Virus record (IMG/VR): IMGVR_UViG_2713896773_000003 | Location: 1 to 20,639 of that record | Strand: one strand, 5' to 3' | Source of the DNA: a virus | Lineage: Duplodnaviria > Heunggongvirae > Uroviricota > Caudoviricetes | Length of the DNA: 20,639 nt | Shown: piece after piece, positions 1,750 through 12,781 of the stretch | How the letters are laid out: each line of letters opens with the position of its first letter | Numbering within the stretch: position 1 is the stretch's first letter | Translations under genes and position numbers: made by a program | The notes under the pieces: model-generated | Database searches by the model: none | The model's input: the letters and a program-made list of their open reading frames with translations, nothing else | What the model was told of the DNA's origin: nothing

Positions 1750-1866
1750 CTTCTTCGCATTTAAGGGGACTTAAATGCGACCACAATCTGAACTCCTCAC
1801 CTTGTCACAGATGCAGAAATGCACCTGCGATTTTCTGCATTCTACGTTACCTCTCGGAGGTGGCGT

Positions 1867-2304
1867 ATGAAACAGCCTGTTTTCTACCTCCGCGACGAAC
1901 GCGTTCGCGATAACCTCATCGACTACATCAGGAAGCTGCCTGTTAACGACGCTCTGCCGCTCGTGGTGAAGTTTTCTGAGGCTGACCGCACTCTCGCCCA
2001 AAACGACCTCTTCCACGCTCTTTGTGGCGATACAGCGAAGCAATTGCAATGGGCTGGCAAGTCGCGCGACCTCGCTTCATGGAAAGTCCTGTATGTCTCA
2101 GGCCATGCCATTGCCACCGGTAAGCCTGGTGAAGTGGTGCCGGGTCTGGAAGGGGAGTTCTGCGCCATCCGGGAAAGCACTGCGAAGATGGGCATCCGTC
2201 GCATGACCAGTCTCATCGAATACAGCCAGGCATTTGCTGTGCAAAACGGCGTGCAACTCCGTGAAGTTCGCTACTCAGGTGATTACTTCGGGAGGGTTGC
2301 GTAA
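1867..2304 (+). CDS. ninB: NinB recombination protein (lambda NinB/Orf family)
   Basis: Track ORF 1819..2304. The internal ATG 1867 has GGAGG (1856-1860) at 6-nt spacing and gives 146 aa, the lambda NinB length. Motifs LAQNDLFHALCGD, SWKVLYVSG and ESTAKMGIRRMTSLIEYSQAF match my memory of the lambda NinB pattern (DQN...W...G, SWK, S.SRM). Confidence 0.85.
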   Translation: MKQPVFYLRDERVRDNLIDYIRKLPVNDALPLVVKFSEADRTLAQNDLFHALCGDTAKQLQWAGKSRDLASWKVLYVSGHAIATGKPGEVVPGLEGEFCAIRESTAKMGIRRMTSLIEYSQAFAVQNGVQLREVRYSGDYFGRVA

Positions 2305-2474
2305 TGGCTAGCCCTCTCGCTCGCATCATCACCAACGAAATCTACCGGGTCCGGACACGCACTAAGCGCAAGCCAGCGGTTAAGCCGTCCGACATCCCGA
2401 CCCTGAAAGACTACACCGCCCGCCTGGTGGATCAGAAATGGCTGCGTCTCGCGGCGAGGAGGCGCCATGTGTAA
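2304..2474 (+). CDS. ninE: NinE-like small protein (56 aa)
   Basis: Not in the ORF track (below 60 aa). ATG 2304 overlaps the ninB stop TAA by 1 nt; GGAGG 2291-2295 upstream. Translation MASPLARIITNEIYRVRTRTKRKPAVKPSDIPTLKDYTARLVDQKWLRLAARRRHV resembles my recollection of lambda NinE (RNKRKP...WLRHRARK). The 3' end overlaps the ninG start by 8 nt. Confidence 0.6.
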   Translation: MASPLARIITNEIYRVRTRTKRKPAVKPSDIPTLKDYTARLVDQKWLRLAARRRHV

Positions 2475-3114
2475 ACCATCCCGCCGTAAGTGCAAAGTAT
2501 GCGGTGAATACTTCGTGCCGAAATTCCACGACATCCGGATCCGCTGGTGCTGCCCGGAACACGGCGCAATCCTCGCAATGGAAGAGCGTGAAAAGGAGAA
2601 GGTGAAAGCCGAGGCTAAGCGCATCAGGGAGCAGAAGGAAGCCGAGAAGGAAGGGCGCAAGCGCCGTAAGGCCAAGCGCGAGTCACTCAAGTCAAAATCT
2701 CAGTGGGATAAAGAGGCTCAATCGGCCTTTAACCGCTACATCCGGATCCGCGATGAAGGTAAGCCATGTGTCAGTTGCGGCAATCCACTCATCGGCAAAA
2801 GCAATTACCTGACTGGCAGCGCCATTGACGCCAGCCATTACCGTTCACGTGGCGCTGCCTCACACCTCAAATTCAACGTGTTTAACGTCCACTCCGCTTG
2901 CACCCGCTGTAACCGGCAGTTGAGCGGTAATGCTGTCGAGTACCGGATCCGCCTGATTCATCGCATTGGCCTTAAGCGCGTAGAGCGGCTCGAAGCTGAC
3001 AATGCCCCACGCCGGTTTGACGTTACCTACCTGAAGCGCGTGAAAGCAATTTTTTCCCGCAGGGCCAATGCACTGATGAAGCGCCGTCAAAAACTACAGG
3101 AGAGTGCAGCATGA
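2467..3114 (+). CDS. ninG: NinG/Rap-like recombination protein (Holliday-junction and branched-DNA endonuclease family)
   Basis: GAGGAGG (2454-2460) 6 nt before ATG. Cysteine and histidine motifs CKVCGEYF, WCCPEHG, CVSCG, DASHYRSRG and CTRCNRQLSGNAVEYRIRLI follow the lambda NinG/Rap pattern as I recall it. Lysine and glutamate-rich basic linker in the middle. Confidence 0.85.
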   Translation: MCKPSRRKCKVCGEYFVPKFHDIRIRWCCPEHGAILAMEEREKEKVKAEAKRIREQKEAEKEGRKRRKAKRESLKSKSQWDKEAQSAFNRYIRIRDEGKPCVSCGNPLIGKSNYLTGSAIDASHYRSRGAASHLKFNVFNVHSACTRCNRQLSGNAVEYRIRLIHRIGLKRVERLEADNAPRRFDVTYLKRVKAIFSRRANALMKRRQKLQESAA

Positions 3115-3752
3115 AATGCAAAGTTGAAGGTTGTGAGCGTGAATGCAAACACTACCCAGGAAAGGGTATCTGTCAAATGCACTACTTCCGAATGATGCGC
3201 TACGGGACCTACGAACTCACAAAAAATGGTAAAGGGAAATTCAGGCATAAAAATGCGAAGGGATATCAAATGCTCAAAATTCCTGATCATCCACTATCAA
3301 TGGCGAATGGCTGCGTTTATGAGCACCGAAAAGTTGTTTACGACCGCTATGGAGAAACACTTCCACCATGCGAAAAATGCGGCAAGAAGGTCACATGGAA
3401 AACCGCGCATATTGATCACATTGATGAGGTTGTTGATAACAATGCGGACTCAAATCTTAGGGTGCTTTGCCGAGCGTGTAATGTCATGCGATCTCGAGTG
3501 CATATCCCTGAGCACACAAAAAAAGGACGCACAGCCATAACTTTCAATGGCGAAACGAAAACCGCCACAGAATGGTCAAGGGACCATCGCGTTTCAGTAT
3601 CAGAAACATCCATCAAGCGTCGACTAAAAAATGGAATGAATGTAGAGGATGCGCTTTTTTCTCCCAAAGTAACCCACAGGCATACCAGGCCAAGAGGAAG
3701 AACACCTCTGTATGGTGAATATCGCGGACCAAAGCAGAAGGAGTCAGCATGA
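3111..3752 (+). CDS. HNH homing-type endonuclease with an N-terminal Cys/His cluster and a C-terminal DNA-binding-like region
   Basis: ATG overlaps the ninG stop (ATGA). Cys/His cluster CERECKHY...CQMHY. HNH core EHRKVVYDRYGETLPPCEKCGKKVTWKTAHIDHIDEVVDNNADSNLRVLCRACN (His, Asn, His with flanking CxxC pairs). Codon and base composition are visibly more AT-rich than the flanking nin genes. Confidence 0.8.
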   Translation: MKCKVEGCERECKHYPGKGICQMHYFRMMRYGTYELTKNGKGKFRHKNAKGYQMLKIPDHPLSMANGCVYEHRKVVYDRYGETLPPCEKCGKKVTWKTAHIDHIDEVVDNNADSNLRVLCRACNVMRSRVHIPEHTKKGRTAITFNGETKTATEWSRDHRVSVSETSIKRRLKNGMNVEDALFSPKVTHRHTRPRGRTPLYGEYRGPKQKESA

Positions 3753-3865
3753 ACCACACCGACTTCCTCCGGTACCAGGCCGAAAGCGTTAAGCGCGCCT
3801 ACCTGCCGCCAGTAGCAAAGCACAGCCAGACCAAAACCCACCAGCCACAGAAGGAAGCCGCATAA
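3749..3865 (+). CDS. Possible very small ORF (38 aa) coupled between the HNH gene and the Q-like gene
   Basis: ATG 3749 overlaps the HNH stop (ATGA); its stop TAA 3863-3865 overlaps ATG 3865 of the next gene (TAATG). No motif recognised. The overlaps suggest translational coupling, but such a short ORF could be chance. Confidence 0.3.
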   Translation: MNHTDFLRYQAESVKRAYLPPVAKHSQTKTHQPQKEAA

Positions 3866-4674
3866 TGAACCTCGAATCAATCGCTAAATACTTTGCGCCT
3901 AAATCACCGATGTTCAGTGACTCTCCTCGCGCAACCGCATCAGACAGTCTCACCGGCACTGACGTTATGGCGGCGCTTGGCCTTGCTGGCCACAAGTGCG
4001 GGTTTGGTTTCGATCTTTACCTCTCGAAAATCGGCATTAGCAGCCCAGATATAGCACTGGAGAGACTCTATGAGCAGGCACGTAAGTTATCAGGTAAATT
4101 CAGAGCACTGTCTGAACTCGATGAATCAGCTCGGTCAGGCGTGCTTAAGGTTCTCTGCGCTTTTGCATACCAGGATTATTCAAGAAGTGCTGCCAGCACT
4201 CGAAAATGTGATTGCTGTGATGGTGGCGGATTTACAGAGGCGCAAGTGTTTACCAACAAGGTCTCATACCCATGGGGGAAACCGCCTTACTGGTCGAAAA
4301 TGTCGCGTGCCGTTCGCCCAAGCGACTGGGAGAGCTGGACACAGGCGCGTGAGGTGGTGCGAGTTAAGTGCAAGCCGTGTAACGGAAAAGGCGTTATCAG
4401 CAATTCGTGTCGCTGCCATGGCAAAGGTAAGGTGCTGGACAAGGCAGAAAGCGATCGCCAGGGCGTTCCAGTAATGAAAGCCTGCGACCGCTGCGGTGGT
4501 AGAGGTTACGCCAGGCTTAAGTTCTCAACGGTAATTGAGGGCGTTAATACTGTTGCGGAGATAAAGAAAACGGCGGCATATGAGCAACTTCAGCCGCTAT
4601 TTGAGGAGTTGGTCGCCGAATGCCATAAACAGGAGTCTATGGCTGATTCCATTCTCTCAAAAGTAACGAGATGA
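3865..4674 (+). CDS. Putative late-gene antitermination protein Q-like, with four CxxCxGxG zinc-finger-like repeats
   Basis: Last gene before a long non-coding region containing promoter and terminators and the lysis cassette, which is the canonical Q position. Repeats CDCCDGGG, CKPCNGKG, CRCHGKG and CDRCGGRG suggest zinc binding. Family assignment is by position and from memory that some Q-type antiterminators are zinc-binding. Confidence 0.55.
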   Translation: MNLESIAKYFAPKSPMFSDSPRATASDSLTGTDVMAALGLAGHKCGFGFDLYLSKIGISSPDIALERLYEQARKLSGKFRALSELDESARSGVLKVLCAFAYQDYSRSAASTRKCDCCDGGGFTEAQVFTNKVSYPWGKPPYWSKMSRAVRPSDWESWTQAREVVRVKCKPCNGKGVISNSCRCHGKGKVLDKAESDRQGVPVMKACDRCGGRGYARLKFSTVIEGVNTVAEIKKTAAYEQLQPLFEELVAECHKQESMADSILSKVTR

Positions 4675-4716
4675 AAATAATTTTCCCTAATGTTGAAAAT
4701 ATATAGGAAATAGGTA

Positions 4717-4745
4717 TTGCATTTCGCGGAAAAACTGGATAGATT
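4717..4745 (+). promoter_or_regulatory. Candidate sigma70 late promoter (PR'-like): -35 TTGCAT, 17-bp spacer, -10 TAGATT
   Basis: TTGCAT at 4717-4722 and TAGATT at 4740-4745 with exactly 17 bp between, 40 bp downstream of the Q-like stop and about 50 bp upstream of the first terminator hairpin. This geometry fits a short PR'-to-tR' leader on which Q would act. Confidence 0.4.
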
Positions 4746-4796
4746 CATCTCTAACGCTGGGAATCCGTTCAGTCGTTCCGAAGCCAAAAAAATTCA

Positions 4797-4826
4797 AGCC
4801 CGAGGTTAACGCCTTGGGCTTTTTTT
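4797..4826 (+). terminator. Rho-independent terminator (tR'-like)
   Basis: Stem AGCCCGAGG (4797-4805) / CCTTGGGCT (4812-4820): 9 bp with one G-U pair, loop TTAACG, followed by a run of T at 4820-4826. Confidence 0.6.
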
Positions 4827-5088
4827 ATTTCTTTGTGGCCTAAATCGCTTCGAGCCAAAAAAACGCGGAGAACGACATCACCCCTCTCCGCAATAACGAC
4901 TCAATCTCATACCCGCTTGTCTTTCTTTTATCCACAAAGAGGTAAAGCCATAACTTAGTGGAAATGGTAACAGCTAAAAACTATTTGAAAAGCTAATTAT
5001 TTTTTGCATCAACTGGCTATTCTTAAGGATTGTTTAATTTTTTGCTTTCCTAGCGAGAAAGAAGCTCCGGAAACTATCAATCAATACA

Positions 5089-5113
5089 AGGCTGCCGTTC
5101 GGCGGCCTTTTTT
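5089..5113 (+). terminator. Second rho-independent terminator upstream of the lysis genes
   Basis: Stem AGGCTGCC (5089-5096) / GGCGGCCT (5101-5108): 8 bp with one G-U pair, loop GTTC, T-run 5108-5113. It sits 40 bp before the holin start. Confidence 0.6.
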
Positions 5114-5152
5114 ATTCCTAGCAACAGCACTCGCACAAAGCGAGGTGAGAGT

Positions 5153-5377
5153 ATGTATCGCATGGACAAACTAACCACTGGTGCTGCCTATGGCGCTTCA
5201 GCCGGGAGCATCCTAAACGGCATGTTGAATGCCTACAGCCCCGAGCAGTGGAACGCTATCGGCGTGCTGGTGGGTATCATCATTGCCGTAATGACGTATC
5301 TGACAAATCTCTATTTCAAAATCCGCGAAGACAACCGCCGCAGCAGGAGCCGAGATGAACCCAACGTTGAGGAATAA
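5153..5377 (+). CDS. S: Class II holin, phage-21 S-like pinholin, with dual start (Met1 and Met4)
   Basis: GAGGTGAGAG upstream. N-terminus MYRMDK gives two in-frame starts differing by a positive charge, the holin/antiholin arrangement. Two TM segments. C-terminus [17 protein letters not shown] matches my memory of phage 21 S ([14 protein letters not shown]). 3' end overlaps the endolysin start. Confidence 0.85.
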
Positions 5378-5849
5378 GCTGGTGGGTGCCATTGTTGGCG
5401 GATCAGGGGCAATCACTATTGCTGCAGTAATGCTGGGCAATGCGGATGGACTCGAAGGTCGGCGTTATTACGCCTATCAGGATGTGGTCGGCGTCTGGAC
5501 CGTTTGCGATGGGCACACTGGTACCGACATTCGCCGCGGTCACCGATATACCGACAAAGAGTGTGACAACCTGCTTAAGGCAGATCTGCGAAAGGTGGCA
5601 AGCGCCATCGACCCGCTGATCAAGGTTCGCATCCCTGAGCCAACCCGCGCCGCGCTTTACTCCTTCACCTATAACGTTGGCTCTGGTGCTTTTGCCAGCT
5701 CGACGCTGCTGAAGAAGCTGAACTCCGGTGATGTTCCGGGTGCGTGTAAAGAACTGCAGCGCTGGACTTATGCTGGCGGCAAGCAGTGGAAGGGGCTGAT
5801 CACCCGGCGCGAGATTGAGCGTGAAGTCTGCGAGTGGGGCCAGAAATGA
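5355..5849 (+). CDS. R: SAR endolysin (T4-lysozyme-like muramidase with N-terminal signal-anchor-release domain), phage-21 R-like
   Basis: Glycine and alanine-rich weakly hydrophobic N-terminus [20 protein letters not shown] (SAR domain). Catalytic E-x8-D-x5-T arrangement in [17 protein letters not shown]. Conserved [26 protein letters not shown] tail. Overlaps holin 3' end and Rz start. Confidence 0.9.
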
Positions 5850-6310
5850 GCCGATTAACCGCAATCATCTGCGCTGTCGTTATCTGCCTGCTGGTTTCCA
5901 TGGCCTGGGCCATTAACCACTACCGCGACAACGCCATCACCTACAAAGACCAGCGCGATAAAGCCACAAAGAACCTCCGCCTGGCTAATGCCACCATCAA
6001 AGATATGCAGACCCGCCAGCGTGATGTCGCTGCACTGGATGCCAAATACACGAAGGAATTGTCCGATGCGAAAAAGACCATTAACGATTTGCGTCGTGAT
6101 GTCGATTCTGGCGCTAAACGGCTGCGCATCGCCGCAACCTGCCCTGGAGTGCCAAAAGCCACCTCCTCCACCGGCGTGGATGATGCAGGAGCCCCCGAAC
6201 TTACTCCAGACGCTCGACGGAATTATTTCGATCACCGGGACGGAATCGCAACCGCTGACAAAATGATTCGCGGCATGCAGGACTACATCAAAGAGCAGTG
6301 TCTTAAGTGA
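5846..6310 (+). CDS. Rz: Rz i-spanin (inner-membrane spanin subunit)
   Basis: ATG 5846 overlaps the endolysin stop (ATGA); the track start at 5834 is an upstream GTG. N-terminal TM helix [20 protein letters not shown] followed by a charged coiled-coil periplasmic domain. Rz1 is embedded in the +1 frame. Confidence 0.8.
6066..6266 (+). CDS. Rz1: Rz1 o-spanin (outer-membrane lipoprotein), fully embedded in Rz in another frame
   Basis: Within track ORF 5988..6266. ATG 6066 is preceded by AAGGAA. Signal peptide with lipobox LALNGC, then the proline-rich stretch [14 protein letters not shown], nearly identical to the lambda Rz1 motif [14 protein letters not shown] as I recall it. 66 aa. Confidence 0.8.
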
Positions 6311-7056: not shown

Positions 7057-7695
7057 ATGGTGAACGAAGACGAGCGCAGGCCACTTCCACCAGTTAATTT
7101 CATTGGCCCTGATAACTGGCAGCCCTACACCAGATTGATTCCCGCCAATGAAGTGCATGACTGGATAAGCCATCAAATCCTCAGCGATAGCGGAAGCATC
7201 CATAACCCAGACCACGCCCATTTAATGGAAGCTGATTTGTGTTTTATGTGGGCTTCTGACTCATTCGCGAAGAAAGGGCGCTACGTTCTCGGACAGGCCG
7301 AACAGGTAATGCTCCGCGCAGGTGGTTGGCAGAAAGCCAGAATGGAACAGCAGATGTATGAATGGTTCGGGCGCATCCCGAAGTTCATCATCACGCTGGC
7401 AGCCGACTACTGCTCACAATGCAGCGACCTTGAATTCTGCGCCCTGGTAGAGCATGAGCTTTACCACATTGCCCAGGCCACCGATGATTTCGGCGCACCT
7501 AAGTTCAACAAAGAGACCGGGCAGCCAGTTCTCACATTGCGCGGCCACGACGTCGAAGAATTTGTCGGTGTTGTGCGTAGATACGGGGCGAGCACTGAAG
7601 TGCAAGAACTGGTGGACGCAGCCAATCAACCTGCAGAGGTGGCAAAACTTAACATCGCCAGAGCGTGCGGGACGTGCATGCTGAGACTGGCGTGA
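7057..7695 (+). CDS. Putative phage metallopeptidase-domain protein (HExxH motif HELYH, SprT-like or phage metallopeptidase-like)
   Basis: CAGGA RBS 7 nt upstream; coupled to the previous gene. Motif CALVEHELYHIAQATDDFG with Glu about 20 residues after, plus cysteine pairs CSQCSDLEFC and CGTC. Family identity is from memory. Confidence 0.6.
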   Translation: MVNEDERRPLPPVNFIGPDNWQPYTRLIPANEVHDWISHQILSDSGSIHNPDHAHLMEADLCFMWASDSFAKKGRYVLGQAEQVMLRAGGWQKARMEQQMYEWFGRIPKFIITLAADYCSQCSDLEFCALVEHELYHIAQATDDFGAPKFNKETGQPVLTLRGHDVEEFVGVVRRYGASTEVQELVDAANQPAEVAKLNIARACGTCMLRLA

Positions 7696-7726
7696 ATTTT
7701 TGACTGATTATGACAGGCGGTAAGCG

Positions 7727-8215
7727 ATGGCTGCATTAAAGGGAGAGGTGAAAGCGTTTATCGTTCAATCGCTTGCATGCTTCGACACGCCGTCGCAAGT
7801 GGTCGATGCCGTCAAAAAAGAATTTGGCATCACGATCCCCCGTCAGCAGGTTGAATCTCACGACCCGACGAAAGCAAACGGCAAAGGTCTGGCGAAAAAA
7901 TGGGTCGAGATGTTCAACGAAACCCGCGAGCGCTTCCAGACGGAAATTGCAGAAATCCCGATCGCTAATAAGGCTTATCGGCTTCGCGTACTGCAACGAA
8001 TGTCTGTGACCGCAGAGAACATGAAAAACCTCGGCATGACAGCTCAGCTTCTCGAACAGGCAGCAAAAGAAGTTGGGGATGTCTACACCAACAAACAGAA
8101 GGTTGAGCAAAGCGTTGTTGCCACCCATAACGTTATGCCGGTCCCGTCCTGCGATAACGTCGACGACTGGGAAGCAGCAGCACAGAAACAGCAGAGCGAG
8201 GTTCTTGGTGGATGA
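7727..8215 (+). CDS. Putative terminase small subunit
   Basis: A 162-aa gene immediately upstream of, and overlapping (ATGA), the terminase large subunit. The N-terminus MAALKGEVKAFIVQSLACFDTPSQVV resembles small-subunit proteins of enterobacterial phages as I recall them. Assignment is mainly positional. Confidence 0.65.
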   Translation: MAALKGEVKAFIVQSLACFDTPSQVVDAVKKEFGITIPRQQVESHDPTKANGKGLAKKWVEMFNETRERFQTEIAEIPIANKAYRLRVLQRMSVTAENMKNLGMTAQLLEQAAKEVGDVYTNKQKVEQSVVATHNVMPVPSCDNVDDWEAAAQKQQSEVLGG

Positions 8216-9783
8216 ATTACAAAGCCGTCTGGAAACCTTTGCCGGGATCGCAATCGCTCTCCCTGAGTTGCCCGTGTAACGAAATCCTCTACGAAGGTAC
8301 GCGAGGCCCCGGTAAAACCGCCGCGCAACTGGCGCGCTTTCGTCGCCTGGTTGGTCTGGGCTATGGCTCGTTCTGGCGTGGCGTCATTTTCGATACCGAG
8401 TATAAGAACCTCACCGATATCATTACCCAGTCAAAGCGCATGTATCGCCTGTTTAACGACGGCGCACGCTATCTGGCGTCAGCATCTGAACTGCGCTGGG
8501 TGTGGCCGACTGGAGAGGAGCTGCTGTTCCGCTTCGGGAAAGAAGAGGGTGACTACTGGGACTATCACGGCCAGGAGTTTCCGTTCATCGGCTTTAACGA
8601 GCTGACCAAGCAGCAGTCCCCTGAATTCTACGAGATGATGTTCTCTTGCCGGCGCTCCTCGTTCCGGCCTGAGAATTACCCGCTGGGTGACGGTTCGTTA
8701 CTTAAGCCTATTCCCCTGGAGACGTTCAGCACCACTAACCCGTTTGGCATCGGCCACACCTGGGTGAAGAAACGCTTCATCGAGCCAGCGCCCCGCGGCA
8801 CCATCATTCGTGAAACGCAGCAGGTGTTTAACCCGCAAACTGAGCGCGAAGAGGATGTGACGCTGACGCGCGTGGCTATTCACGGCTCGTTCAAAGAGAA
8901 CCCGTATCTGGATCCCCAGTACATCGCAACGCTGATGGCCATCAAAGACCCGAACCGCCGCAAAGCTTGGGTAGAGGGCTCCTGGGATGTCACCAGCGGT
9001 GGGCGCTTTGACCACCTGTGGAATGCATCGCTGCACGTCATTAAGCCGTTCCGCATCCCGGATAGCTGGACGGTTGACCGTTCCCATGACTGGGGTGAGT
9101 CGAAGCCGTTCTCTAACCTCTGGTGGGCGCGAGCCGACGGTACTGCCGCAGAACTGCCTGATGGTCGCCAGTTCTGCCCGCCTGCCGGGTCGCTGATCCT
9201 GATTGGCGAGTGGTATGGCTGTCCACCTGACGAGCTGAACAAAGGGCTCAATATGAGCTCGACAAACGTCGCCAAGGGTGTGGCCTGGATTGATAAGCGG
9301 CTGATGGGCGAAGAGCTGCCTGAACCTGAAGAGATAAAACTCAATGGGATAACTCAGGGGCAACTGAACATCATGCCCGGTATCTGCAAAAAGGTTGTGC
9401 CGGGCCCAGCTGACGGTGCCATCTACAACACTGGCGATGACGAGCTCTCTATTGCCCAGAAGATGGAATCGCAGGGCGTTAAGTGGGTTCCATCCAACAA
9501 GAAACCGGGATCGCGCGTAAACGGAGCGGCCCTCTTTGCTGACATGCTGGAGGCCGTCCTTGAGGGTAAGAAGCTGGAATCTGGTGTACCTGAGAAACCA
9601 GCATTCTACGTCTTCGACTATTGCCGCGGCTGGATAAGCCGTGTTCCGGTGCTCGTTCGCGACAGTAAGAACCCTGATGACGTAGACACTCAGCAGGAAG
9701 ATCACGACTGGGATGGCACTAGATATGCCGTCCTGCATTCACCGCCGAAGAAAGTCGGCAAAGTCACCAACCTACGGATCTAA
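8212..9783 (+). CDS. Terminase large subunit (ATPase plus nuclease)
   Basis: Walker A-like YEGTRGPGKT near the N-terminus, 523 aa, directly upstream of the portal gene. The first about 25 residues (SQSLSLSCPC) are low-complexity, so the true start could be an internal non-ATG codon. The 346-aa antisense ORF 8698..9738 is rejected. Confidence 0.9.
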   Translation: MNYKAVWKPLPGSQSLSLSCPCNEILYEGTRGPGKTAAQLARFRRLVGLGYGSFWRGVIFDTEYKNLTDIITQSKRMYRLFNDGARYLASASELRWVWPTGEELLFRFGKEEGDYWDYHGQEFPFIGFNELTKQQSPEFYEMMFSCRRSSFRPENYPLGDGSLLKPIPLETFSTTNPFGIGHTWVKKRFIEPAPRGTIIRETQQVFNPQTEREEDVTLTRVAIHGSFKENPYLDPQYIATLMAIKDPNRRKAWVEGSWDVTSGGRFDHLWNASLHVIKPFRIPDSWTVDRSHDWGESKPFSNLWWARADGTAAELPDGRQFCPPAGSLILIGEWYGCPPDELNKGLNMSSTNVAKGVAWIDKRLMGEELPEPEEIKLNGITQGQLNIMPGICKKVVPGPADGAIYNTGDDELSIAQKMESQGVKWVPSNKKPGSRVNGAALFADMLEAVLEGKKLESGVPEKPAFYVFDYCRGWISRVPVLVRDSKNPDDVDTQQEDHDWDGTRYAVLHSPPKKVGKVTNLRI

Positions 9784-12316: not shown

Positions 12317-12781
12317 ATGACTCAACATATTGGCGTGAAGCTCATCAATGCTTACCCGATGACCCGTCTGGCATATAACGACTTTCGTGGTTGGGAGTTA
12401 CCAAGTGACGAAAACGGAAGTGATGAAGGTTATCTCGTCGAGTATCTGGATGGCGGAAAGCCAAACACCGATCGCTTCAACGGGTATGTGAGCTGGAGTC
12501 CGAAAGATGTGTTCGACAAAGCCTACCGACCAGTGGCGGGGCTTAGCTTCGGACTGGCTGTCGAAGCCCTGAAATCAGGCAAGCGTGTCACCCGCGCAGG
12601 CTGGAACGGCAAGGGCCTGTGGCTTGAGCTGGTCCAGCAGTCGCCATCTGTGGACCTGCCGTACATTCGTTTAATTTATCCTGTGCCGGGCAATGGTGCT
12701 ATGCCATACCCAAATGGCGCTCGCGTGCCTTGGGCACCAAGCCAAACCGACGTCTTGGCTGATGACTGGCAAATTCTCTAA
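12317..12781 (+). CDS. Two-domain accessory protein; C-terminal half DUF2829-like (the family of Thoeris anti-defence Tad2), N-terminal half a possible degenerate duplicate
   Basis: C-terminal motifs LAVEALKSGKRVTRAGWNGKGLWLEL and VPWAPSQTDVLADDWQIL match my recollection of the DUF2829 signature. N-terminal segment GYVSWSPKDVFDKAY echoes the C-terminal W-P-x-D-V-L-x-x-D-W element. Sits between head morphogenesis and scaffold genes, a classic moron site. Confidence 0.6.
   Translation: MTQHIGVKLINAYPMTRLAYNDFRGWELPSDENGSDEGYLVEYLDGGKPNTDRFNGYVSWSPKDVFDKAYRPVAGLSFGLAVEALKSGKRVTRAGWNGKGLWLELVQQSPSVDLPYIRLIYPVPGNGAMPYPNGARVPWAPSQTDVLADDWQIL

Follow-up and report, generated by a model that had tools for sequence, protein, structure and literature searches.

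A candidate site-specific HNH endonuclease gene linked to junction resolvases in the nin operon of lambdoid prophages

The question raised by this locus is whether an HNH endonuclease gene in the nin region of a lambdoid prophage is foreign cargo or a working part of the operon that contains it. The gene lies in IMG/VR virus record IMGVR_UViG_2713896773_000003 (Caudoviricetes), positions 1 to 20,639 of which were analyzed. This whole stretch of 20,639 nucleotides is called the window below; positions refer to it, and features are on its + strand unless stated otherwise. The window corresponds to contig LDYI01000088.1 of assembly GCA_001309485.1 and represents the right arm of a phi80-related lambdoid prophage. 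A first-pass annotation, made from the sequence alone, had described the gene as an AT-rich, horizontally acquired, free-standing homing-type endonuclease inserted between ninG and a Q-like gene. Judging from the sequence comparisons reported here, the gene forms an ancient part of the lambdoid nin operon, though one that individual phages may lack. As for its function, we give about even chances to the explanation that the protein is an active, site-specific, and probably nicking endonuclease that partners a resolvase in the nin recombination module.

The open reading frame (ORF) occupies exactly 3111-3752, starts with ATG, ends with the TGA at 3750-3752, and encodes a 213-residue member of PHROG family 4160. 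The previously noted HNH motif with zinc-ligand cysteines is confirmed: Pfam HNH (PF01844) matches residues 87-127 with 31.8 bits against a cut-off of 21.4 (E=1.6e-7), and the catalytic and zinc-binding residues are intact. The motif is complete, comprising C87-x2-C90, H100-I-D102-H103, N111, N115-L, and C120-x2-C123-N124. In an alignment of 64 homologues with 47-84% identity, C87, C90, D102, H103, N111, N115, C120, C123, and N124 are invariant, as are G51, Y52, H72, and R73, and H100 is present in at least 90% of the sequences. The catalytic D-H base, the structural Asn, and the metal-ligand Asn/His are placed in a beta-beta-alpha fold, as is characteristic of His-Me finger nucleases.

In the AlphaFold2 model built from the same alignment (mean predicted local distance difference test score of 88), a ribbon is followed by a segment of three strands and a helix, then by the beta-beta-alpha core, and at the C-terminus by a module of three helices. 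The N-terminal zinc ribbon (residues 1-33, positions 3111-3209) has the pattern C3-x4-C8...C21-x2-H24 followed by YFR..R.G, in which C3, C8, C21, H24, Y25, R27, R30, and G32 are invariant. The next segment of beta strands and a helix (residues ~44-81, 3240-3353; GYQML...HPL...G.VYEHRKV) corresponds to the one preceding the catalytic core in I-HmuI/HNH_3-type enzymes. The HNH beta-beta-alpha-metal core (residues 85-131, 3363-3503) combines a CCCC zinc site (C87/C90/C120/C123) with the catalytic residues D102/H103, N115, and N124. The C-terminal portion (residues ~138-185, 3522-3665; ITFNGETKTATEWSRD..V..S..TI..R...G....AL) is predicted to be a DNA-binding module resembling a helix-turn-helix (HTH), modelled with strands at 143-145 and 148-150 and helices at 152-157, 165-173, and 178-183. 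W155, R171, and G175 of this module are invariant, it matches PHROGs of HNH endonucleases (phrog_3377), and relatives of 258-283 residues carry two tandem copies of it. The same module of ~50 residues (~138-190) is also repeated in very long tandem series elsewhere, up to 28 times in a single polypeptide; the proteins concerned include P0121 (1537 residues), P0122 (1202 residues), and P0123, for which Pfam reports only a weak PVL_ORF50 match.

Regarding the HNH subfamily, profile searches gave a mixed outcome: PF01844 is above its cut-off, but HNH_5 is sub-threshold, and neither HNH_3 nor zf-His_Me_endon was matched by the window protein in Pfam. Some relatives do match HNH_3, weakly. The phrog_4160 match is full length (E=1.8e-39; residues 1-190 align to positions 7-176 of the 178-position profile). 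The PDB sequence search returned only the Cas9 HNH core (E=0.018), Foldseek against PDB only core matches with E>0.01, and the NCBIfam and PADLOC profiles nothing beyond the HNH core, with sub-threshold ZorE matches alone. No homology to the lambda nin products (ninA-ninI) was detected, and no Nin Pfam family was matched.

Homologues with 98-100% identity are found in four public contigs, which encode the identical protein, and in many IMG/VR contigs. Those with 72-86% identity belong to Lelliottia, Raoultella, Klebsiella, Kluyvera, Salmonella, Citrobacter, Pectobacterium, and Serratia, followed by E. coli and Salmonella (65-69%) and Proteus (~55%). The range of 37-56% is represented by Xenorhabdus, Pseudomonas, Paraburkholderia, Vibrio and Thalassomonas phages, an alphaproteobacterial metagenome-assembled genome (MAG), and phage Fraca. 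Relatives sharing 40-98% identity are thus spread through the Proteobacteria. A tblastn search against 50,697 phage records matched 69 of them, none lambda-like, with the best identity (45.5%) reported for a Vibrio phage.

In the genomes examined, the gene directly upstream of the HNH gene encodes a junction resolvase, usually with an overlap of 4 to 16 nucleotides, the exception being phage Fraca. NinG takes this place in the window clade, Klebsiella, Kluyvera, E. coli (L053), Pectobacterium, Proteus, Xenorhabdus, and metagenome loci L054-57, as well as in Vibrio phage 1.029.O, Pseudomonas phage PSA04, six Pseudomonas genomes or MAGs, and Paraburkholderia. RusA is found there in E. coli (L015), Salmonella (L016/17), two Pantoea species, an Enterobacter MAG, and phage BA3. 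A third type, the DUF1064/phrog_190 "Holliday junction resolvase", precedes the gene in an Ectothiorhodospiraceae MAG (DUF1064 E=2e-14) and, with a weaker match, in the alphaproteobacterial MAG (phrog_190 E=1.1e-31; DUF1064 22.2 bits, under the 24.7-bit cut-off). The linkage thus extends from Enterobacterales as far as Pseudomonas, Vibrio, and Alphaproteobacteria. The same picture emerges from 80 IMG/VR loci surveyed blind, among which there were 51 distinct upstream ORFs: 34 are NinG and 16 are RusA (50/51 resolvases), and the remaining one is an insertion sequence (IS) transposase that truncates the HNH gene. At one more locus, no upstream ORF of at least 50 residues ends near the HNH start. 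The first-pass annotation had set an insertion against membership in a conserved nin gene family, and these counts favour the latter, describing a recurrent nin-region family.

In Fraca, the HNH relative follows an ISL3 transposase and is the last gene before cos and terS. By Pfam, the ISL3 transposase is the Fraca product VUF54105.1 (L022:1579-2871), whose annotation as "protein with HNH endonuclease domain" is probably wrong. The same probably holds for QVJ12451.1 of PSA04 (L021:3001-3618), named "recombination protein NinG": it is a member of the HNH family, and the true NinG is the preceding gene.

The two genes are also found joined. In-frame NinG-HNH fusions with no internal start codon occur in three lineages (P0145, 385 residues; P0149, 367 residues; P0163, 297 residues), the first two on two contigs each. 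The contig of P0145 (L061) has a second small HNH gene (105 residues, 3667-3984) ~2 kb downstream; its position resembles that of packaging-type HNH genes, so two HNH roles may coexist in one phage. As for the gene downstream of HNH, it varies among orf38 (described below), YlcG, NinH, Lar, and Q itself. Six Klebsiella loci with an identical HNH protein keep NinE-NinG-HNH-YlcG constant, whereas their Q, lysis, and terminase modules vary. An endonuclease VII-like resolvase replacing rusA was considered for the window protein, because rusA often fills the slot before ylcG-Q. It was rejected: the HNH gene always accompanies a resolvase, the protein gave no Endonuclease_7 profile match, and endonuclease VII is absent among the structural matches.

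In the window itself the resolvase gene is ninG (2467-3114; Pfam PF05766, E=1.9e-50), which encodes a Rap-type junction-specific endonuclease and lies directly upstream of the HNH gene. It is preceded by ninB (1867-2304, as called on the contig; Pfam NinB) and ninE (2304-2474; Pfam NinE). At the ninG/HNH junction (3098-3114) the Shine-Dalgarno sequence AGGAGAG (3098-3104) is followed by a 6-nucleotide spacer and an ATGA at 3111, within which the ninG stop overlaps the HNH start. The delayed-early nin operon ends with a phi80-type Q antiterminator gene (3865-4674; PF03589 Antiterm E=1.3e-34, phrog_127 E=1.5e-92), 98% identical to Q of phi80. The placement of the HNH gene between ninG and a Q-like gene is therefore right as regards both genes, which Pfam confirms, but a 38-residue ORF ahead of Q (orf38, 3749-3865) had been missed.

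This ORF begins MNHTDFLRYQAESVKRAYLPP, forms the right-hand border of a variable slot, and is called as a gene on four contigs. It is coupled translationally to the HNH gene through ATGA and to Q through TAATG. It is annotated in E. coli 730V1 and not in phi80; it is kept upstream of phi80-type Q in E. coli prophages, and phage HK639 and the Enterobacter phages ENT1 and BHUENT share 91% DNA identity with it. Profile searches, Pfam and PHROG among them, gave no family match for orf38. Its identification as a YlcG homologue, which fills the same place in Klebsiella prophages, was dropped after a comparison revealed no similarity.

The genes ninG, HNH, orf38, and Q are chained by stop/start overlaps (ATGA at 3111 and 3749, TAATG at 3865), and a GGAG-type Shine-Dalgarno sequence stands ahead of each start in the ninB-ninE-ninG-HNH-orf38-Q chain, of which the HNH gene is the fourth link. 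No promoter-like site and no + strand terminator-like site was detected in a scan of 1829-4796; the sole match of either type is a weak - strand terminator-like site at 3764-3742, which opposes the direction of the operon. Since the gene has neither a promoter nor a terminator of its own and shares overlapping stop and start codons with its neighbours, it is assigned, on this sequence evidence, to the delayed-early (pR) nin operon, where it is evidently coupled translationally to the resolvase gene. The same features led us to reject the idea of a moron, i.e., autonomous prophage cargo.

According to base composition, the gene does stand out, as the first-pass annotation stated. Its GC content is 0.450, compared with 0.549 for ninG and 0.512 for Q, and the corresponding values at third codon positions (GC3) are 0.416, 0.634, and 0.515. 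The HNH gene has the lowest GC3 among the 22 genes or gene segments measured in the window, and only 1.9% of 642-nucleotide segments are as GC-poor, the others of which all fall in the Q-holin intergenic region. Across lineages, however, the GC content of the gene rises and falls with that of the host, the extremes being 0.36 (a low-GC metagenome phage) and 0.60 (Pseudomonas). The difference from the rest of the locus averages -0.032 and is negative in 19 of 23 lineages, the window being the extreme case. Because the deficit is small, family-wide, and superimposed on host composition, AT-richness is not evidence of recent import; as far as these comparisons go, it is a mild family trait, strongest in Enterobacteriaceae.

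Substitution rates also speak against recent acquisition. The ratio of nonsynonymous to synonymous rates (dN/dS) is 0.03-0.07 for HNH wherever dS can be estimated (the window against two Kluyvera copies; E. coli against Salmonella), which is lower than 0.13-0.22 for NinG. When the window copy is compared with those of Klebsiella, Pectobacterium, Pantoea, and Proteus, synonymous sites have reached saturation. These values indicate that the gene is under strong purifying selection and that the family is old.

As for the insertion itself, the ninG-to-Q junction of related prophages supports part of the first-pass claim: the gene is optional and occupies a variable slot in comparison with phi80-type relatives, but it is an old recurrent family rather than a one-off foreign insertion. 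By blastn, the window is 98% identical to phi80 over 3769-6141 (Q and lysis genes), and over the first 205 nucleotides of ninG (2465-2671) its identity to phi80 rap, and likewise to many E. coli prophages, is 91%. Nothing between 2671 and 3769 is alignable to phi80, which makes ninG itself a mosaic, its remaining two thirds (2672-3110) being unalignable. The slot between ninG and orf38 is empty in E. coli ABWA45 and W619, where NinG is followed by the 38-residue ORF and Q; it holds a 68-residue Lar-like gene in phi80 and a 127-residue phrog_1621 gene in E. coli 730V1. One E. coli draft genome has the order ppp-NinG-HNH-Lar-Q, i.e., that of phi80 plus HNH. In phi80-type prophages, the interval from ninG to orf38/Q is therefore a hot spot for cargo, with at least four states (empty, Lar-like, phrog_1621, and HNH, and also HNH plus Lar). 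Presence or absence of the gene at this defined site distinguishes otherwise similar genomes: the HNH-less ABWA45 prophage is 99.5% identical to the window from 3732 rightwards, i.e., from 20 nucleotides before the HNH stop.

A GGAG..GCATGA(A) junction is found at every cassette boundary in phi80, ABWA45, 730V1, and the Klebsiella loci. Flanking direct or inverted repeats were considered as insertion scars, but only this Shine-Dalgarno plus ATGA motif recurs; being present at every gene boundary, it is a generic translational-coupling signal and not a target-site duplication. At the DNA level the HNH gene has no match in the 50,697 phage records (megablast) and none among the best matches from 5,426 complete E. 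coli genomes (megablast, blastn); coming from the left, nucleotide matches break off at ninG, and they begin again only at 3732-3769. Identities of NinG and HNH are decoupled: they are 89% and 100%, respectively, for the window against L010, 48% and 82% against Klebsiella (L003), and 95% and 85% for Kluyvera intermedia against K. georgiana (L026 and L028). This indicates recombination at the junction of the two genes, as elsewhere in lambdoid mosaics. Among the four contigs with an identical HNH protein, differences cluster in the 5' third of ninG (2400-2700) and none occur in 2700-5700; L010 and L012, otherwise 98-99% identical to the window, differ from it almost only in 2400-2700. No HNH-centred co-conversion tract was found among these four contigs.

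Taken as a resolvase partner, the HNH protein would act as follows. Its translation would be coupled to the ninG stop codon, and, with that coupling and no promoter of its own, the protein should be made in lytic growth together with NinB (Orf) and NinG (Rap). The enzyme would break DNA at particular sequences, probably as nicks, and replication could convert these breaks into recombinogenic ends. Such ends would be used by NinB/Red or RecA functions, and the joint molecules might then be resolved by the adjoining resolvase. Nuclease and resolvase would thereby form an initiator-plus-resolver pair, possibly in physical association. This scheme has some precedent in the literature. Nicks made by zinc-ribbon HNH enzymes have been speculated to stimulate recombination (Xu and Gupta, PMC3592412), and other His-Me finger nucleases of the nin region (NinG, YbcO/DUF1364) have been linked to recombination (PMC5714182). 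Moreover, orf always stands ahead of rap or rusA, and some ninR maps show HNH genes (Curtis et al., PMC4118853). A broader version is put forward more tentatively, with confidence clearly below even: the whole family may be a dedicated resolvase partner, a sequence-reading nickase teamed physically or functionally with NinG, RusA, or the DUF1064-type enzyme in a "break-and-resolve" module.

Several observations weigh against a resolvase partnership. The architecture of the protein is that of homing endonucleases, and PHROG 4160 is listed as "unknown function", the nuclease role being read from sequence. Most lambdoid phages, including lambda, phi80, and P22, are without the gene, and none of the isolated phages in the 50,697 records has a homologue above 46% identity. 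The fusions come from metagenome contigs only, and single indels can fuse genes that overlap by 4 nucleotides. Adjacency could also reflect a conserved lambdoid gene order, with non-homologous resolvases being swapped beside a cargo hot spot; the same slot in phi80-type phages also takes Lar-like or phrog_1621 genes. Finally, the decoupled identities given above (48% vs 82%, 89% vs 100%) speak against strict co-evolution of NinG and HNH.

Among the alternatives, a selfish free-standing homing endonuclease survives best and is regarded as a serious, though less likely, rival. Such an enzyme would cut or nick lambdoid genomes that lack HNH, close to the resolvase-Q junction, when phages co-infect a cell or superinfect a lysogen, and repair would copy the cassette with its flanks, giving the marker exclusion proposed in the first-pass annotation, with no benefit to the phage. 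The modular build (zinc ribbon, HNH, and one or two HTH modules), with I-HmuI as the best structural match, agrees with this, as does the conserved active site, which an active homing element requires. The precise ORF-sized cassette between conserved junction motifs, its presence, absence, or replacement by other cargo in phi80-type relatives that are 99.5% identical just rightwards, the independence of HNH and NinG identities, and the persistent small AT bias (19/23 lineages, largest in the window) point the same way. No common flanking target, however, is evident among three unrelated upstream resolvase families and varied downstream genes (orf38, YlcG, NinH, Lar, Q). The in-frame NinG fusions are without intein features, and a dN/dS of 0.03-0.07 over saturated dS, together with GC amelioration, implies long residence under selection rather than cycles of invasion and decay. 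The constancy of NinE-NinG-HNH-YlcG in the six Klebsiella loci, and the comparison of the window with L010/L012, which reveals no HNH-centred co-conversion tract, are likewise at odds with homing.

A nuclease of inter-genome conflict, directed at the DNA of rival phages, of plasmids, or of the host (to exclude superinfecting phages, degrade host DNA, or counter defences) and with no role in the phage's own recombination, appears doubtful. HNH nucleases often serve as effectors in systems of defence and offence, the gene is optional like accessory competition genes, and the core gives weak matches to ZorE HNH models (PADLOC E=1.1e-5, NCBIfam E=0.002) as well as to Cap5, McrA, and retron-associated HNH structures. 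These database matches, however, span only the 40-residue HNH core and reach 17 bits against a cut-off of 600; being sub-threshold and confined to the core, the ZorE matches provide no evidence for a defence system. Furthermore, the gene has no independent promoter for expression from the prophage and no partner sensor or immunity gene, and the strict adjacency to resolvases and the fusions would be left unexplained.

A packaging-associated role of the HK97 gp74 type, i.e., aid to the terminase in cos cleavage, is held by many phage HNH proteins (Kala et al. 2014; PMC3592412) and would suit the distant, 37.6%-identical relative from HK97-like Escherichia phage Fraca, whose gene is followed directly by terS/terL, but it is very improbable here, given that the HNH gene lies some 4 kb upstream of the DUF2280 small-terminase-like gene, with orf38, Q, the lysis cassette, and three more ORFs between it and the DUF2280/TerL genes (7727-9783), that the head module of the window is of the MuF/DUF4055-portal and not the HK97 type, that in Klebsiella one identical protein (P0006) is found alongside no fewer than three types of terminase (DUF2280 with a 558-residue TerL, Terminase_6C, and Terminase_2 with Terminase_6N), and that close phi80-type phages are entirely without the gene.

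Two other observations concern genes elsewhere in the window. Ahead of the large terminase gene, a PhageMetallopep (PF18894) gene is followed by a DUF2280 gene (7057-8215, + strand), and this pair recurs upstream of different large terminases in Klebsiella prophages. At 12317-12781 (+ strand), between the MuF-like head-morphogenesis and scaffold genes, lies a 154-residue gene matching Pfam Tad2-like (PF11195), a family name associated with anti-Thoeris proteins, and phrog_872 of unknown function.

By itself, the gene is an ordinary one, one more prophage HNH endonuclease: public records already label the protein "HNH endonuclease", and HNH genes of the nin region have been drawn before. The only unexpected elements are the resolvase linkage and the NinG fusions, i.e., a comparative pattern in which one zinc-ribbon/HNH/HTH family is tied to a resolvase gene across three unrelated resolvase folds. 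A literature search on an HNH endonuclease in the lambdoid nin region returned nothing, and no paper describing the resolvase linkage or the NinG fusions of this family was found. If the linkage is functional, the protein could be the missing initiator nuclease for nin-region recombination (Orf, Rap, RusA) and a candidate driver of the recombination behind lambdoid mosaicism, within a two-nuclease module that has not been described before. As a probably site-specific enzyme, it could also provide a new nicking specificity as a tool. Were it a selfish homing element instead, temperate lambdoid phages would offer a case of homing-type behaviour.

In comparison with known systems, the HNH protein combines features of several groups. 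Like the I-HmuI/HNH_3-type homing nickases (His-Me finger group 2; PDB 1u3e), it has a beta-strand segment before the core and a C-terminal HTH-type module, whose copy number varies among its relatives. Unlike them, its gene is neither intron- nor intein-encoded, and the protein has in addition a CxxxxC/CxxH zinc ribbon at its N-terminus and a CCCC zinc site within the core, misses the HNH_3 model itself, and is syntenic with, and sometimes fused to, junction resolvases. Zinc-ribbon HNH nickases carry a [CxxC]2 core and a ribbon with CxxxxC and CxxH (PMC3592412), and this pattern, known from N.phiGamma, Gme HNH (4h9d), and GVE2 HNH (Xu & Gupta 2013, PMC3592412), is matched by the HNH protein with invariant residues. 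Those nickases, however, are ~90-190 residues long, have no HTH module, and are encoded beside cos/terminase genes, whereas the HNH gene is resolvase-linked in the nin operon.

As for lambda NinG (Rap), RusA, YbcO/DUF1364, and DUF968, they belong to the same operon and share delayed-early expression with the HNH gene. NinG represents His-Me finger group 24 (PMC5714182) and hence a superfamily common to both proteins, but homology does not extend beyond the CxxC/His-Me core. Nucleases of the nin region are optional and shuffled among lambdoid phages (PMC4118853), and so is the HNH gene. In contrast to NinG and RusA, the HNH protein has the sequence-reading modules expected of a site-specific rather than a structure-specific enzyme, and its gene accompanies a resolvase and never replaces one. 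Finally, HK97 gp74 is likewise an HNH protein of a lambdoid-type phage with CxxC/CxxH zinc motifs, and the Fraca relative holds the gp74 position. The HNH protein of the window differs from it in length (213 vs about 119 residues), in position, in its extra domains, and in having no tie to one terminase.

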